This document shows positions 4,899-34,199 of a stretch of 56,292 nt of DNA, piece by piece. Source of the DNA: Clostridia bacterium (GTDB taxonomy: Bacteria; Bacillota; Clostridia; Oscillospirales; SIG627); NCBI GenBank assembly GCA_017439965.1, contig JAFSID010000013.1:1-56292 (forward strand). The letters run 5' to 3'. Every line of letters starts with the position of its first letter. Within the stretch, counting starts at the first letter, position 1. Both the position numbers and the translations under genes were made by a program. The notes beneath the pieces were generated by a model. The model saw only the letters and a program-made list of their open reading frames with translations, was not told the origin of the DNA and did no database searches.

Positions 4899-6569
4899 AT
4901 GGCAAAAACAAAAAAACAAAAGCTTAAAATTATTCCCCTCGGAGGTATAGGAGAGGTCGGAAAGAACATTACCGTCGTTGAATACGGCGACGACATCCTC
5001 GTCGTTGACTGCGGCCTTGGATTTCCCGATGACGATATGCTGGGCATCGACCTTGTAATCCCCGACGTATCCTACCTCGAAAAAAACGCCGACAGGGTGA
5101 AGGGAATTATCCTCACCCACGGTCACGAGGACCACATCGGCGCACTTCCTTATATTTTAAAGGACCTGAACGTTCCCGTTTACGGAACGAGACTGACACT
5201 CGGTATTTTAACCAACAAGCTCGTTGAACACAGCCTTGAGCGAGTAGTAAAGCTTAACTGCATAAGCGCAGGAGACACGGTAAAGCTCGGATGCTTCTCG
5301 GCAGAGGCAATAAGAGTAAATCACTCCATTGCCGACAGCGTTGCCTGGGCAATAACCACCCCCGTCGGAACGGTGGTGTTCAGTGGTGACTTCAAGATAG
5401 ACGTCACTCCCATTGAAGGAGAAATGACCGACCTGACACGCTTCGGCGAGCTTGGTAAAAAGGGCGTGCTTGCATTCTTCTGCGAGTCCACCAACGCCGA
5501 AAGAAGCGGATATACCCCCTCCGAGAGAATCGTCGGCAACAGCCTTGACACGATTTTCTCCTCAACCTCAAAGAGAGTAACCATTGCAACCTTCTCCTCA
5601 AACGTACACCGTGTACAGCAGATAATCAACGCCTCCGAGAAATTCGGACGCAAGGTGGCTATCACGGGAAGAAGTATGATAAACGTCGTAAAGGCGGCAA
5701 TGGACCTCGGCTATATGCATATGCCCGAGGGAATGCTTATAGACATCGGTGAAATGAAGCGTTACAGACCCGACCAGCTTACCCTTATCACAACGGGAAG
5801 CCAGGGAGAGCCTATGAGCGCACTTCACAGAATGGCTTACTCCGACCACGATAAGATAAGCCTCGGCGCAGACGACCTCGTCGTTATATCCGCCACTCCC
5901 ATACCGGGTAACGAAAAGCTTGTTTCCAACGTAATCAACGAGCTTTTACGCAAGGGCGTTGAGGTGGTTTACAATCAGGTAGCCGACGTTCACGTATCGG
6001 GACACGCCTGTCAGGAGGAGATCAAGCTCGTTACCTCCCTTTTAAAGCCTACCTTCTTCGTGCCAATGCACGGTGAATTCAAGCACCTTTCACAAAACAA
6101 GCTCCTTGCCGAAATGGTAGGAGTATCACCCGACAACATTCTCATTCCCGAAACGGGAAAAATTATAGAGCTTGACAAGAAGTCTATCAGGACGAATGGC
6201 ACAGTGCCCGCAGGCAACGTGCTGGTTGACGGTCTCGGAGTCGGAGACGTCGGAAGCGTAGTGCTTCGTGACAGAAAGCATCTGGCTCAGGACGGTATCG
6301 TTATGGTAGTAGCGGCGCTCGACATTTCGGCAGGATATCTCCTGTCGGGTCCCGACGTCGTAACCAGAGGCTTCGTATACGTCAAGGAATCCGAGGAGCT
6401 TATGGAGGAGATGCGACAGGTAGCCTACGACGTTATAGACAAAACGCTTGATGCAGGCTATCAGGATGCAAACGCCATCAAGAACGCACTCCGTGACGAC
6501 CTGACCAAATATCTGTACAGTAAAACTCGTCGCCGTCCGATGATTTTACCCGTATTGATGGATTTATAA
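4899..6569 (+). CDS. rnj: Ribonuclease J
   Basis: PLGGIGEVGKN, THGHEDHIG, TTGSQGEPM, HVSGHA and RRPMILP motifs. Confidence 0.96.
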   Translation: MAKTKKQKLKIIPLGGIGEVGKNITVVEYGDDILVVDCGLGFPDDDMLGIDLVIPDVSYLEKNADRVKGIILTHGHEDHIGALPYILKDLNVPVYGTRLTLGILTNKLVEHSLERVVKLNCISAGDTVKLGCFSAEAIRVNHSIADSVAWAITTPVGTVVFSGDFKIDVTPIEGEMTDLTRFGELGKKGVLAFFCESTNAERSGYTPSERIVGNSLDTIFSSTSKRVTIATFSSNVHRVQQIINASEKFGRKVAITGRSMINVVKAAMDLGYMHMPEGMLIDIGEMKRYRPDQLTLITTGSQGEPMSALHRMAYSDHDKISLGADDLVVISATPIPGNEKLVSNVINELLRKGVEVVYNQVADVHVSGHACQEEIKLVTSLLKPTFFVPMHGEFKHLSQNKLLAEMVGVSPDNILIPETGKIIELDKKSIRTNGTVPAGNVLVDGLGVGDVGSVVLRDRKHLAQDGIVMVVAALDISAGYLLSGPDVVTRGFVYVKESEELMEEMRQVAYDVIDKTLDAGYQDANAIKNALRDDLTKYLYSKTRRRPMILPVLMDL

Positions 6570-30958: not shown

Positions 30959-32266
30959 TTATTCGTCCTTGCCGTCCTCATCGGAATCCTTGGACTTCTT
31001 CTTATCGTCCTCGTCATCCTCGGTCTTTTCAAAGAGCTCAACGCGGACGGAGGTAACTCTGTGAGACTCACAAACCTCAACCGTCAGAATACCGAAGTCG
31101 GTCTCAAGTCGGTCTCCCTCCTCGGCAACCTTTTCAAGTCGCTCTGCAACGAAGCCTCCGAGAGAAACGCTGTCGGTCTCGAAATCGTCAAGGTCAAAAC
31201 GGCTCTTGAAGTCCTCCATATTGACACCGCCCTCAACGAGATAAAGTCTCTCGCCGATCTCACGGTAATCCTCGACAACCTCGTCGTGCTCGTCCCATAT
31301 CTCTCCGACAAGCTCCTCAAGAATATCCTCCATCGTAACTATACCGAGAGTTCCGCCGTACTCGTCAAGCACGACTGCAATGTGGGATTTCTCCTCCTGA
31401 AGTCTCTTGAGAATACTGGTAATCTTTTCTGTCTGGTTGATAAAGATAGGCTCAGAGGAAATATCCTTGATATCTCCCTTGTACATACCGCCGTTAACGT
31501 AGAAGTCCTTCTGATGAATAACGCCGACGATATTGTCAATGTTATCCTCGTAGAGAAGAAGTCTTGAAAAACGTGTTTCGGTAAAGCAATCGGCAATCTC
31601 CTGCTTGGTAGCGGTAACGGGAAGAGCTTCAATGTTTATACGGTGAGTAAGTATTTCCTCAGCGCAACGGTCGGTAAACTCGATAGCGTTCTTCAAAAGC
31701 TCGCCCTCGTCGTCGTTGATGCTACCCTCCTGCTGACCCTCTTCAACGAGAATAAGCAGCTCCTCCTGAGAAACACCCTCCTCCTCTTCTGCCTTGAAAA
31801 GCACGTAGATGAGCTTTCTCCACAAGGAGAAAATGAAGTTGAAGGGAGTGAGAAGAATCAAAAAGAACTTAAGTAAGCGCACGGTTGCCATTGCGAATTT
31901 TTCTGCAAAGTTTCTCGCAAGGGTCTTGGGCGTTATCTCACCGAAGATGAGAACGACAACGGTTACCGCAACGGTTGAAACGGTTGCCGCAACGTCCTGA
32001 TCCTGAATGAGCTTTACGAAAACGATGGTAGCCATTGAGGAAAGCAGAATGTTAACCACGTTGTTACCGATAAGTATTGTGGAAATAAGCTTATCGTACT
32101 GCTCAGTAAGAGCAAGCACCATATCCGCCTTTTTGTTACCCTTTTCCGAAAGAGCCTTAAGGCGAGTTTTATTTACCGAGGAAAAAGCCGTCTCGGTAGC
32201 CGAGAAATACGCGGAAAGCACAAGGCAGACCGCCATAACGATTAAATAGGGTATGTATTCCGTCAT
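30959..32266 (-). CDS. HlyC/CorC (CNNM-CBS-CorC) family protein, probable Mg2+/Co2+ exporter
   Basis: [31 protein letters not shown] and [30 protein letters not shown]. Confidence 0.92.
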
Positions 32267-32406
32267 AAAGCAAACACCTCATCATTCCTGAAAATAGACA
32301 CAAAAAGGCATACCTGCACACCTTTAGTGCGCGCAGATATGCCGAAATCTATTTCATTATTAAAAATACAAGTGTTCGCGTCAGGGTCGCAACTGTCGCC
32401 GTCCAT
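32263..32406 (-). CDS. Putative 47-aa leader peptide upstream of the corC-like gene
   Basis: [56 protein letters not shown]; its stop overlaps the corC start (ATGA). Confidence 0.55.
   Translation of the reverse strand: MDGDSCDPDANTCIFNNEIDFGISARTKGVQVCLFVSIFRNDEVFAL
32302..32343 (-). terminator. Attenuator terminator in the corC 5' leader
   Basis: 15-bp stem GGCAUAUCUGCGCGC/GUGUGCAGGUAUGCC (3 G-U pairs) plus UUUUU, ending about 35 nt before the corC start. Confidence 0.75.
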
Positions 32407-32442
32407 TATCCGTATCATCCTCCTTGGATTTTATTCGAGGGA

Positions 32443-32471
32443 ATTATAACAAATAAAAGGGCTTTTGTCAA
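32443..32471 (-). promoter_or_regulatory. Consensus SigA promoter for leader-corC
   Basis: TTGACA-N17-TATAAT with TG extension; overlaps the ABC gene terminator hairpin (32455-32479). Confidence 0.8.
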
Positions 32472-32486
32472 GCCCTTTTACTAAAA

Positions 32487-34199
32487 TTAAGCTCTGAGAT
32501 GCGAGCGGTAAAGTCCTGCGTAAACTCCGCCCTTTTCGAGAAGCTCGGTATGAGTTCCTCTCTCGGTAATTCTTCCGTCGGATACGACGACTATCTCATC
32601 CGCGCCCTGAACGGTGGAGAGTCTGTGAGCAACGATAAGCGTCGTTCTTCCCTCGCAAAGCTCGTTGAGAGCGTTCTGTATAAGTATCTCGGTCGCGTTG
32701 TCGAGAGCGCTCGTTGCCTCATCGAGAATAAGAATGGGAGGATTCTTGAGGAATATTCTCGCAATCGACAGCCTCTGCTTCTGACCGCCCGAAAGCCTTA
32801 CGCCTCTCTCACCGACCTCAGTGTCGTAGCCCTTTTCAAGAGTGGTTATATAATCGTGTATACCCGCCTTCTTAGCCGCCTCGATAACCTCCTCCTCGGT
32901 AGCGTCGGGTCTGCCGTAAAGAATGTTATCACGGATGGTGGAGTTGAACAGATACACGTCCTGCTGAACGATACCGATATTACGGCGAATGGATTCACGC
33001 GTATAGCTTTCGGCAGGCCTTCCGTCAAGGAAAAGCTCTCCGTTTTCAATATCGTAAAATCTCGGAATGAGATGGCATACGGTAGTCTTACCGCCTCCGC
33101 TCGGTCCGACGAGCGCAACCGTCTTACCCTTTTCAAGCTTCAAATCAATTCCGTGAAGCACGTCGTGTACTCCGTCGTAGCCGTAGGATACCGAACGGAA
33201 TTCAATCTCACCCTCAAGCACTCCTGCGTCAACAGCGCCCTCACTGTCCTTTTCGGGCTCAGCGTCAAGCACCTCAAGAAATCTCTCAAAGCCCGTAACA
33301 CCGTTCTGATACTGCTCCATAAAGTTAATAAGAGTCATAACGGGAGACAGAAACATATTGACCGATACGACGAACGCAGAATAGTCTCCGAAGAGTATAT
33401 AGCCCTTGTAATAGAAAAATCCGCCCGCAATAAGCACTATAACGTTGAATATATCGGTAATAAAGGCGGTTGATGCGTGAAACTGTCCCATTGCCTTATA
33501 CGCCTTGTGCCTTGCGCGGATAAAGTCCTCGTTGCCCTCCTCGAACTTTTCCTGCTCCTTTGCGGAATTATTGTAAGCCTTGGTGGTACGGATACCCGAG
33601 ATGCTTCCCTCGATGCAGGCGTTTATCTTGCCCACTGCCTCACGGCTTTCCTTGAAGGCGTTTCGCATCTTGACTCTCAGCTTCATTGCCGCTATCAGTA
33701 AAAACGGTACTGCGACGAAGATGGTCAGCGTGAGACGGATATCAATGGTTGAAAGAAATACGAAGGATGCAATTGCGGTGATTGTGGAAATAAGCAGGTT
33801 TTCAGGACCGTGATGAGCAAGCTCGGAAATCTCCCAGAGGTCACTCGTCATACGGGTCATAAGCTTACCCGTTTCGTGATTGTCAAAATAGCTGTACGGA
33901 AGCTTTTCAAGATGTGTGAAGAGCTCGCTTCTCATCTGTGCCTGCATTTTAACGCCCATAACGTGACCGTAATACTGGATAAAATAATTGAGAAGCATAC
34001 GCACGACGTAAAGGGCAAGCAGACCGAGACCCGCCCAAACGACCAGTCTGTATTTTCCGTTGGGTATCAGATCGTTGAGCATTTCACGGGTAAGTATCGG
34101 GTAAAGTATTGCTATAAGCGCAACGAAAAGCGATGCCGTCATATCCCAGAAGAAGATTCTTTTGTGTGGCTTGTAATATGACAAAAATCTTTTTAACAT
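32487..34199 (-). CDS. ABC exporter, fused permease/ATPase (MsbA/YwjA-like)
   Basis: Start ATG 34199. SELAHHGPE, GPSGGGKT, LSGGQKQR, ILDEATSALD and AHRLST motifs. Confidence 0.93.
   Translation of the reverse strand: MLKRFLSYYKPHKRIFFWDMTASLFVALIAILYPILTREMLNDLIPNGKYRLVVWAGLGLLALYVVRMLLNYFIQYYGHVMGVKMQAQMRSELFTHLEKLPYSYFDNHETGKLMTRMTSDLWEISELAHHGPENLLISTITAIASFVFLSTIDIRLTLTIFVAVPFLLIAAMKLRVKMRNAFKESREAVGKINACIEGSISGIRTTKAYNNSAKEQEKFEEGNEDFIRARHKAYKAMGQFHASTAFITDIFNVIVLIAGGFFYYKGYILFGDYSAFVVSVNMFLSPVMTLINFMEQYQNGVTGFERFLEVLDAEPEKDSEGAVDAGVLEGEIEFRSVSYGYDGVHDVLHGIDLKLEKGKTVALVGPSGGGKTTVCHLIPRFYDIENGELFLDGRPAESYTRESIRRNIGIVQQDVYLFNSTIRDNILYGRPDATEEEVIEAAKKAGIHDYITTLEKGYDTEVGERGVRLSGGQKQRLSIARIFLKNPPILILDEATSALDNATEILIQNALNELCEGRTTLIVAHRLSTVQGADEIVVVSDGRITERGTHTELLEKGGVYAGLYRSHLRA

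Follow-up and report, generated by a model that had tools for sequence, protein, structure and literature searches.

A conserved acidic leader peptide with an embedded terminator upstream of cation-efflux genes in Clostridia: a putative ribosome-occlusion attenuator

Introduction

MgtL is a short leader open reading frame (ORF) before the Mg2+ transporter gene mgtA in Salmonella and E. coli; its translation is reported to decide transcription termination, and, owing to its acidic, proline-containing N-terminus (MEPDP...), translation aborts more frequently when Mg2+ is low. In this study, we describe a leader with a comparable arrangement in a 56,292-nt stretch of DNA from a Clostridia bacterium (contig JAFSID010000013.1 of assembly GCA_017439965.1, positions 1 to 56,292; hereafter, the window). 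An upstream ORF (uORF) with an acidic N-terminus and an intrinsic terminator precedes a gene encoding a CNNM/CorB-type transporter. All elements are on the minus strand, coordinates are window positions, and L-numbers are the locus labels of collected sequences. MgtL is described as controlling an importer, being ON at low Mg2+, and using alternative stem-loops and a Rho-dependent terminator. In contrast, the leader studied here precedes putative exporter genes and carries an intrinsic terminator within its ORF; it has no conserved alternative structure, and its predicted response to Mg2+ is of opposite sign.

According to Chadani et al. (10.1101/2021.02.02.429294), Asp, Glu, or Pro residues right after the initiator Met destabilize the ribosome and abort translation (intrinsic ribosome destabilization, IRD). 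Small residues favor abortion, whereas bulky residues and a filled exit tunnel counteract it, and MgtL senses low Mg2+ by this effect. The N-terminus of E. coli ybeX/corC, MSDDNSHSSDT, reportedly behaves alike, and high Mg2+ was proposed to raise its expression (10.1101/2021.02.02.429294), as restated in PMC12421838. YbeX/CorC thus resembles our leader in carrying an N-terminus of Asp and small residues on a CorC-family gene. However, in that case the acidic residues begin the regulated protein, a soluble CBS-CorC protein, and act on its translation, whereas our leader is a separate ORF coupled to a terminator and its target is a membrane CNNM/CorB-type protein.

In the pyrL leader of E. coli pyrBI, the ORF likewise runs through an intrinsic terminator, and a close ribosome is reported to block the hairpin with no antiterminator involved (PMC5021804, PMC4824070, both citing Roland et al. 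1988). pyrL differs in that UTP is sensed via polymerase pausing at U-tracts, whereas here ribosome passage through the acidic N-terminus is proposed; the target genes also differ. In Firmicutes, Mg2+ acts on an intrinsic terminator through the M-box (ykoK), a cis-acting 5′ leader. The M-box, however, is an RNA aptamer without an ORF, controls importers, and is OFF at high Mg2+. In Salmonella, YoaL is a small leader ORF overlapping the region upstream of the CorC-domain cation-stress gene mgpA (yoaE), and its authors suggested that it raises expression at high Mg2+ (PMC12421838). It belongs to another organism group, its target has a TerC-CorC architecture, and the accessible text of that paper reports neither an acidic N-terminus nor an embedded terminator (PMC12421838). 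By analogy, our leader would work like pyrL in its output and like MgtL and YbeX in its sensor, as a member of neither. Our literature search found no acidic leader ORF with an embedded terminator described before CNNM or Ca2+-ATPase genes; supplements (motif lists of noncoding RNA surveys and the lists of IRD genes from Chadani et al.) were outside its scope and could mention it.

Results

An acidic leader ORF that reaches into its terminator is conserved

We consider it very likely that the element is a real, conserved cis-regulatory leader-peptide attenuator. The original prediction for this locus, made from the sequence of the window, had named a consensus promoter, an AAGGAGG Shine–Dalgarno (SD) sequence, a 47-codon uORF beginning with MDGDSCDPD, a 15-bp terminator with a U5 tract inside the uORF (32302-32343), and an ATGA overlap with the exporter start; all were present at the positions it gave, on the minus strand. 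The acidic uORF start and the terminator, which it had proposed to seek upstream of CNNM orthologs, were also conserved there, as described below.

The CNNM protein was searched in 41 related genomes, and the upstream DNA of the 30 returned loci was inspected with no pattern applied. The leader arrangement was found at 7/30 CNNM loci (L001–L007), which span 47–100% protein identity, three genera, and two families; it was absent from the other 23, one of which (L025) is without its 5′ end. A collection scan with a pattern from the shared stem returned 26 loci in named metagenome-assembled genomes (MAGs) of Oscillospiraceae, Acutalibacteraceae, and other Clostridia. CNNM leaders accounted for 21 of these (15 new, 6 duplicates) and unrelated terminators for five; the matches L041, L044, L047, and L048 were rejected as ordinary terminators sharing the stem base. 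In an Acutalibacteraceae MAG (L033, ~6102-6136), a near-identical terminator stem (GGCATACCTG...CAGGTATGCCTTTTTG) stands ahead of a sodium:alanine-symporter-like ORF, and the leader there appears glycine-riboswitch-like by eye only, without an Rfam check. The 22 distinct leaders from these steps form alignment A1.

A relaxed metagenome pattern gave at least 120 matches in at least 118 loci. At least 20 of them passed a filter for an SD and an acidic start, and at least 100 others were discarded as looking like chance (Asp/Glu count of 1–2, early stops). As an internal control, none of the 16 listed matches that combine an SD with a frame into the hairpin had fewer than four Asp/Glu in residues 2–9, whereas the chance-like matches had 1–2. 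A covariance model (R1), built from 39 leaders and less tied to the stem sequence, detected the element in 24/151 sampled genomes of the order, representing 13/30 families, and in 9/150 genomes of the class, seven of them outside the order. The 27 matches in the order comprised 26 acidic leaders, 23 before CNNM genes and three before P2A (P-type) ATPase genes; the remaining one, L232, is a false match with a non-acidic, 129-residue ORF downstream. Outside the order, six of the seven matches were true (five CNNM, one ATPase), and L239 was false, being a gene end with its terminator. Pooling gave 59 distinct leaders from related genomes and metagenomes, with six more from other orders of the class. 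In two genomes, two true leaders stand before different exporters: both CNNM subfamilies in one (G069), and an ATPase and a CNNM gene in the other (G148); a third (G105) has one true leader and the false match L232. A scan of the window's own genome for an SD, an acidic short ORF, and a terminator gave eight candidates, two of which had a terminator. One is the present locus; the other, on contig C92, was rejected as the 3′ end of a 256-residue gene.

The ATG-started frame was open into the terminator in 22/22 leaders of A1, compared with 4/22 and 0/22 for the other two frames, and an SD-like core stood ahead of the start in 22/22. Among close relatives, early-codon changes were mostly synonymous; L001 and L004 differ by four synonymous and two non-synonymous codons. 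The frame across the stem varied by group, with G-I-S, A-Y-L, or H-I-C read from the same stem; therefore, the stem is not conserved for its coding. In the 59 leaders, the uORF ended within or downstream of the hairpin in 57 and fell short of it by 1 and 7 nt in the remaining two; a gap of more than 10 nt was seen in none. The reach of the uORF into the terminator, first noticed in the window, was thus general. In addition, 26/26 true R1 matches in the order obeyed this rule, although no reach filter had been applied to them. The start-to-hairpin distance was 38–89 nt (median 60), and most uORFs ended in or just after the hairpin, 40–200 nt before the target gene. In E. coli, a stop codon a few nucleotides from a terminator is reported to nearly abolish termination, which has full strength beyond about 27–30 nt (PMC4824070). 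By these E. coli figures, all 59 leaders would lie in the repressing distance range. The long SD-to-ATG spacing of the leaders (about 10–15 nt) was dropped as a feature, CNNM genes at the same loci being similar by eye.

The composition of the peptide changes sharply along its length. Over the 59 leaders, Asp and Glu made up 222/472 (47%) of residues 2–9 and 62/1277 (4.9%) from residue 12 on. The reverse was seen for Lys, Arg, and His (8/472 vs. 222/1277) and for bulky hydrophobic residues (12/472 vs. 521/1277). Residue 2 was Asp in 54 and Glu in four leaders, the rest of the segment consisted mainly of Asp, Ser, Gly, Ala, Cys, Asn, and Pro, and 52/59 leaders had more than three Asp, Glu, or Pro in residues 2–11. 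The peptide words differed by group (MDGDSCDPD, MDSGSSDDD, MDEDGYPAE, MEADDGNPP, MDDSDDADC, and MDDADSSDAD). Judging from these sequences, the kept property is composition, i.e., Asp with small residues, and not one motif; by analogy, it would match the published IRD rules (10.1101/2021.02.02.429294). Of the Asp-rich "DPD" start emphasized in the original prediction, Asp with small residues was therefore the shared part, whereas Pro occurred in some leaders only.

At the RNA level, the terminator was the only consensus helix found with RNAalifold in the 22 leaders, with double changes at 3/12 pairs. In an alignment of 64 R1 matches, all fitted to the model and five of them weak additions, the six lower-stem pairs were 99.2% paired and 5/6 showed double changes, a level reached by 0/500 shuffles; slid controls gave 19–68% pairing. 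TTTTTG followed the stem in 22/22 leaders of A1, but the collection pattern required it. Most of the 27 R1 matches in the order keep the T run, and L228 is without a convincing terminator. No conserved antiterminator appeared in the RNAalifold consensus of the 22 leaders, and no recurrent partner of the 5′ arm emerged when the leaders were folded without the 3′ arm. RNAduplex pairing of the upstream region with each arm was no better than in shuffles (mean z of +0.35 and +0.09), with only L051 reaching z = -1.9.

Known riboswitches were also sought, and their absence, as originally proposed, was borne out by Rfam. In 31500-33200, with E-values up to 10, the only matches were STnc320 (16 bits), which falls on the terminator of the upstream gene, and Teg23 (14 bits); both scored well short of the family cut-offs. 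At the gathering threshold, 12 leader loci gave no match to the leader and only a tRNA elsewhere. The M-box (RF00380) was not found in the genome (90.6% complete), the window, or the 12 leader loci. With neither an Rfam or M-box match nor a conserved antiterminator, the output is most simply read as ribosome occlusion.

The leader precedes cation efflux-type genes

The CNNM gene product of the window matched the Pfam domains CNNM (DUF21; membrane domain), CBS (a pair), and CorC_HlyC (E = 1.3e-52, 8.1e-15, and 1.2e-11), which agrees with the CorC/CNNM family originally assigned to it. Among solved structures, the prokaryotic CNNM/CorB-type chains 7m1t/7m1u and 7cfk were the best relatives; a match to E. 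coli CorC (4hg0) was also obtained. The protein reached no NCBIfam equivalog cut-off, GldE, PaeA, and CorC all scoring below; the substrate (Mg2+, Co2+, or polyamine) is therefore left undecided at that level. The gene encodes a probable magnesium exporter.

Among the 59 leaders, 44 precede a CNNM gene, 12 a P2A ATPase gene, and one an AI-2E permease gene, and two have no assigned gene. The CNNM targets comprise 31 of the window's subfamily, 12 of a second subfamily (25–30% identity), and L078, which was assigned by Pfam. The two without assignment are L086, where the contig ends, and L172, where the sequence diverges right after the leader. At L172 (position 1385 onward), an ATPase-type leader is intact up to the ATPase SD and then gives way to sequence not related to the ATPase, pointing to an insertion, a rearrangement, or a chimeric assembly. 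Cation efflux-type genes thus made up 56/57 identified targets, and, judging from these families, the targets would point to cations. The AI-2E permease (PF01594, E = 1.6e-34) was the only identified target that is neither CNNM nor ATPase; it follows an acidic 66-codon leader (MDDTDTEDSDADRNNN...) and a terminator at two identical metagenome loci (L076 and L167).

The P2A ATPase has 884 residues, and its best match in the PDB was the Listeria Ca2+-ATPase LMCA1 (9euq/6zhf, E = 3.9e-195). The Ca2+ model TIGR01522 scored 710 bits and the Mg2+ importer model TIGR01524 scored 410 bits, both below strict cut-offs. Given the similarity to LMCA1 and the higher Ca2+-model score, the protein is therefore read as an efflux-type pump and not an MgtA-like importer. 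In the order sample, 3/3 ATPase orthologs at 69% identity or more carried the leader, one of them with a different stem sequence. The 27 of the 30 P2A ATPase loci that have 44–51% identity showed no acidic leader, the sole filter match among them being L180, whose terminator is unchecked. The genome's own P2A ATPase gene (on C78) has no acidic leader in the 166 nt upstream. In ATPase-type leaders, a second conserved hairpin, CTGACCaCCGC TGAAA GGCGGTCAG, lies between the terminator and the ATPase SD (L100:5079-5115; same place in L066, L094, L162, L168, L176, and L178). At L168 and L175, codon 9 of the ATPase frame reads TGA in place of the TGG (Trp) seen in relatives; a pseudogene, a sequencing error, or recoding may account for it.

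Regarding other Mg2+ transporters of the genome, the single MgtE gene has a plain short 5′ untranslated region (UTR), and a search of the genome for CorA gave none. In the same genus, leaderless CNNM genes (L009–L017, ~44% identity) encode a near-invariant N-terminal extension, MDSPGSIPLCNA..., loosely like the leader peptide. Before it lie AAAGGAGTGAACGTCC and a 5′-UTR hairpin that appears to covary (ATGTG...CACAT). The R1 matches over the SD and ATGGAC were weak (best E = 0.008, most about 1) and do not establish homology between the leader and this extension.

Anatomy of the locus in the window

The features of the window locus are listed in Table 1.

Table 1. Positions of the leader elements and the target gene in the window.
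Feature	Position	Strand	Details
Sigma-70-type promoter	32443..32471	-	-35 TTGACA at 32471-32466, 17-nt spacer, extended -10 TGnTATAAT at 32451-32443; score 12/12
SD of the leader ORF	32419..32425	-	AAGGAGG, 12 nt before the uORF ATG
Leader ORF (uORF)	32263..32406	-	ATG at 32406, 47 codons, peptide begins MDGDSCDPDANTC, TGA at 32265-32263
Acidic small-residue segment, putative sensor	32380..32403	-	Codons 2-9, DGDSCDPD; from composition over 59 leaders
GCGAACACTTG	32369..32379	-	Codons 10-13; predicted pairing with the CNNM SD region 32270-32280 (minimum-free-energy fold)
Intrinsic terminator hairpin within the uORF	32307..32343	-	15 pairs, 8 of them G-C
Terminator U5 tract	32302..32306	-	TTTTT right after the hairpin
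SD of the CNNM gene	32275..32280	-	GAGGTG, 8 nt before its ATG
CNNM/CorB-type transporter gene	30959..32266	-	435 amino acids; CNNM transmembrane domain, CBS, CorC_HlyC

The promoter stands out by its perfect match and not by the number of sites: promoter scoring found two promoter-like sites in the 1.7-kb region, compared with a shuffle mean of 1.6. Comparable TTGACA/TATAAT pairs were found upstream of other leaders that were inspected. In the terminator hairpin of the upstream ABC-exporter gene (32452-32482, AGTAAAAGGGC TTGAC AAAAGCCCTTTTATT), the loop contains the leader promoter's -35 TTGACA; a single stretch therefore doubles as terminator for one gene and promoter for the following one. 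This overlap is also kept in L002 and L003.

A second in-frame ATG (32416-32418) abuts the SD and would give a 51-residue ORF, MIRIMDGD...; it is kept in L001–L004 as AGGAGGATGATA. Because it has no spacer to the SD, it is unlikely to be a start and is probably part of an extended SD context instead. At the other end, the uORF TGA overlaps the ATG of the CNNM gene (32266-32264) as ATGA. The fold of the leader RNA was better than that of 200/200 shuffles (z = -3.4). By eye, the pairing of GCGAACACTTG with the CNNM SD (GCGAAY with GTTYGC) is kept in L001–L004 by G-U changes only, with zero double changes; the helix is a prediction specific to the close relatives of the window.

Discussion

We propose a pyrL-like ribosome-occlusion attenuator with an MgtL/YbeX-like, acidic, ribosome-destabilizing N-terminus, by which efflux genes would be turned on at high cations; this proposal relies on analogy, and we put its probability at roughly 0.5. 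The architecture is well supported; from it, we infer uORF translation in vivo, terminator occlusion, ribosome drop-off, and the identity of the ion. Regarding the parts, ribosome-occlusion logic is likely, and that the signal is Mg2+, or ribosome-stabilizing cations read through IRD, has about even odds.

In the proposed mechanism, transcription would begin at the consensus promoter, and a ribosome would load at the strong SD and have to translate the N-terminus of Asp/Glu and small residues while its exit tunnel is empty. A ribosome that passes would reach the terminator inside the uORF 38–89 nt after the ATG and block the hairpin, leading to read-through into the exporter gene (ON). A ribosome that pauses or drops off in the acidic stretch would allow the hairpin to form, and transcription would terminate (OFF, probably the default). 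High free Mg2+ would relieve IRD, and efflux would be turned on when ribosome-stabilizing cations are in excess, i.e., the inverse of MgtL–mgtA. The sign given by the original prediction, ON at high Mg2+, would fit an exporter as well as the published ybeX/corC proposal (10.1101/2021.02.02.429294). A stall site before the pyrL hairpin is reported to raise termination when translation is slowed, the principle being shown synthetically (PMC5021804). In the window and its closest relatives (L001, L002, and L004), the ATGA overlap would add translational coupling into the CNNM gene; this part of the original prediction holds for these leaders but is not a family feature. The helix of GCGAACACTTG with the CNNM SD may hide the SD and add another layer, which would be local and not family-wide.

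Several points weigh against this proposal. E. coli terminators are reported to be efficient in the first 100 nt of an ORF, where the first ribosome lags (PMC4824070), and the leader terminator sits in the first 100 nt of the uORF. In addition, the B. subtilis RNA polymerase is reported to outrun ribosomes (PMC13323073). With such an early terminator and a lagging ribosome, occlusion would therefore need a polymerase pause. T-runs as possible pause sites precede the hairpin in some leaders only (L002–L004, L049, and L050, but not L005, L034, and L040, by eye). Seven of the 59 leaders have three or fewer Asp, Glu, or Pro in residues 2–11. Ser in codons 2–12 is encoded by AGY in 29/31 cases (22 loci; window 32374-32403), compared with 147/511 in the CNNM genes, and leaders of both the CNNM and the ATPase type share the nucleotide word GACAGTAGCGAC; constraint may therefore also lie in the RNA as such. 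Part of the leader set was ascertained by patterns fixing ATGGAY and the stem base, although the subsets collected without pattern bias (CNNM-locus reading, ATPase orthologs, and R1 matches) give the same picture. The roles assigned to uORF translation, ribosome drop-off, and Mg2+ are deductions from sequence. Finally, Mg2+ is not the obvious signal for a Ca2+-type ATPase that shares this leader. As the same leader type stands before the P2A ATPase (12/59), the signal may therefore be divalent or ribosome-stabilizing cations generally, or Ca2+, and not the Mg2+ of the original prediction alone. One metatranscriptome run (5% of sampled words) gave four short contig pieces that fall within the CNNM gene at 90–99% likeness and left the leader uncovered, which is uninformative either way.

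The ATPase targets also bear on what is sensed. With the same architecture and sign, the Asp/Ser/Cys-rich nascent chain might itself bind a divalent cation in or near the peptidyl-transferase center or the tunnel, with leader subtypes tuned to ions, MDDADSSDADRSN for the Ca2+-type ATPase and others for CNNM. The 12 ATPase leaders do form a distinct, tightly conserved peptide subtype, and Cys is frequent at positions 6, 9, and 13 of the CNNM leaders. However, several groups are without Cys (MDEDGYPAE..., MEADDGNPP...), the conservation of the subtype could reflect common descent with the ATPase gene, and metal sensing by a nascent chain is not known to have a precedent. We regard such binding as improbable. 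A bolder form of the idea, which we hold to be a long shot of the same order, is a clostridial regulon with the ribosome as a cation meter, in which the acidic chain discriminates ions (MDDADSSDADRSN... for Ca2+, the CNNM type for Mg2+) and the module has moved between unrelated efflux genes, in the role that M-box and other metal riboswitches play elsewhere.

Equally doubtful is a signal of translation capacity acting through the same architecture, i.e., an EttA-like ABC-F factor (ATP/ADP), EF-P, or general ribosome status. E. coli EttA is reported to relieve pausing or drop-off on acidic residues in the first 30 codons, including those of MgtL (PMC11282234); as EttA-type ABC-F factors modulate early acidic stalling, energy or translation status is therefore a possible input. 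Some leaders also contain Pro-Pro (NPPL, HPPL), but these motifs are in few leaders only, and the 56/57 identified targets that are cation exporters point to an ionic signal.

The uORF and the terminator might instead act as a constitutive dampener, setting a low basal level of a costly or toxic membrane protein with no physiological signal. Default termination is indeed expected for a terminator so near the start codon (PMC4824070). However, a dampener needs neither an acidic N-terminus nor a uORF that reaches the hairpin, both of which are kept in 59 leaders and several orders, and we consider it unlikely, more so than the readings above.

Slightly less credible still is that the 5′ part acts as RNA, with purine-rich RRY/GAC repeats binding a protein or ligand that controls the terminator and the open frame being secondary. 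The Ser codon bias (29/31) and the GACAGTAGCGAC shared by CNNM-type and ATPase-type leaders would fit this idea, the acidic segment consists largely of RRY codons (GAY, AGY, GGY, and AAY), and, in most close pairs, conservation is higher over the first 39 coding nucleotides than over the 30 nt upstream. On the other hand, the SD, the start codon, and the frame open into the hairpin are kept (22/22 vs. 4/22 and 0/22), no helix other than the terminator is conserved, and acidity persists in other codons (GAC GAA GAC GGT TAC CCC vs. GAC GGC GAC AGT TGC GAC). The AGY bias may reflect either a purine-rich constraint or drift among GAY, GGY, AAY, and AGY codons by single transitions, AGY being one transition from GGY and AAY and these one from GAY; drift from Asp codons could thus explain it.

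A classical amino-acid attenuator reading the supply of charged tRNA-Asp, as the early run of Asp codons followed by a terminator might suggest, is very improbable: there is no antiterminator, stalling at Asp codons would terminate and not read through, Ser, Gly, Asn, or Glu often takes the place of Asp, and the targets are cation exporters and not genes of Asp biosynthesis or uptake.

The regulation of mgpA and corC was described as unclear in a 2025 paper on Salmonella CorC and MgpA (PMC12421838). The element described here is widespread in gut and rumen Clostridia (24/151 genomes sampled from the order), with two copies, on different exporters, in each of two genomes. To our knowledge, the Mg2+-sensing leaders described so far control importers. 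If the proposed occlusion mechanism is true, the leader would be a mirror image of MgtL, a cheap, protein-free sensor turning exporters on at cation excess. Transcription and translation in Firmicutes are thought to be loosely coupled. The leader would provide a natural, compact test bed for IRD outside E. coli and for ribosome gating of intrinsic terminators in Firmicutes, and the element flags genes of about 20–60 codons that are missed by annotation pipelines.

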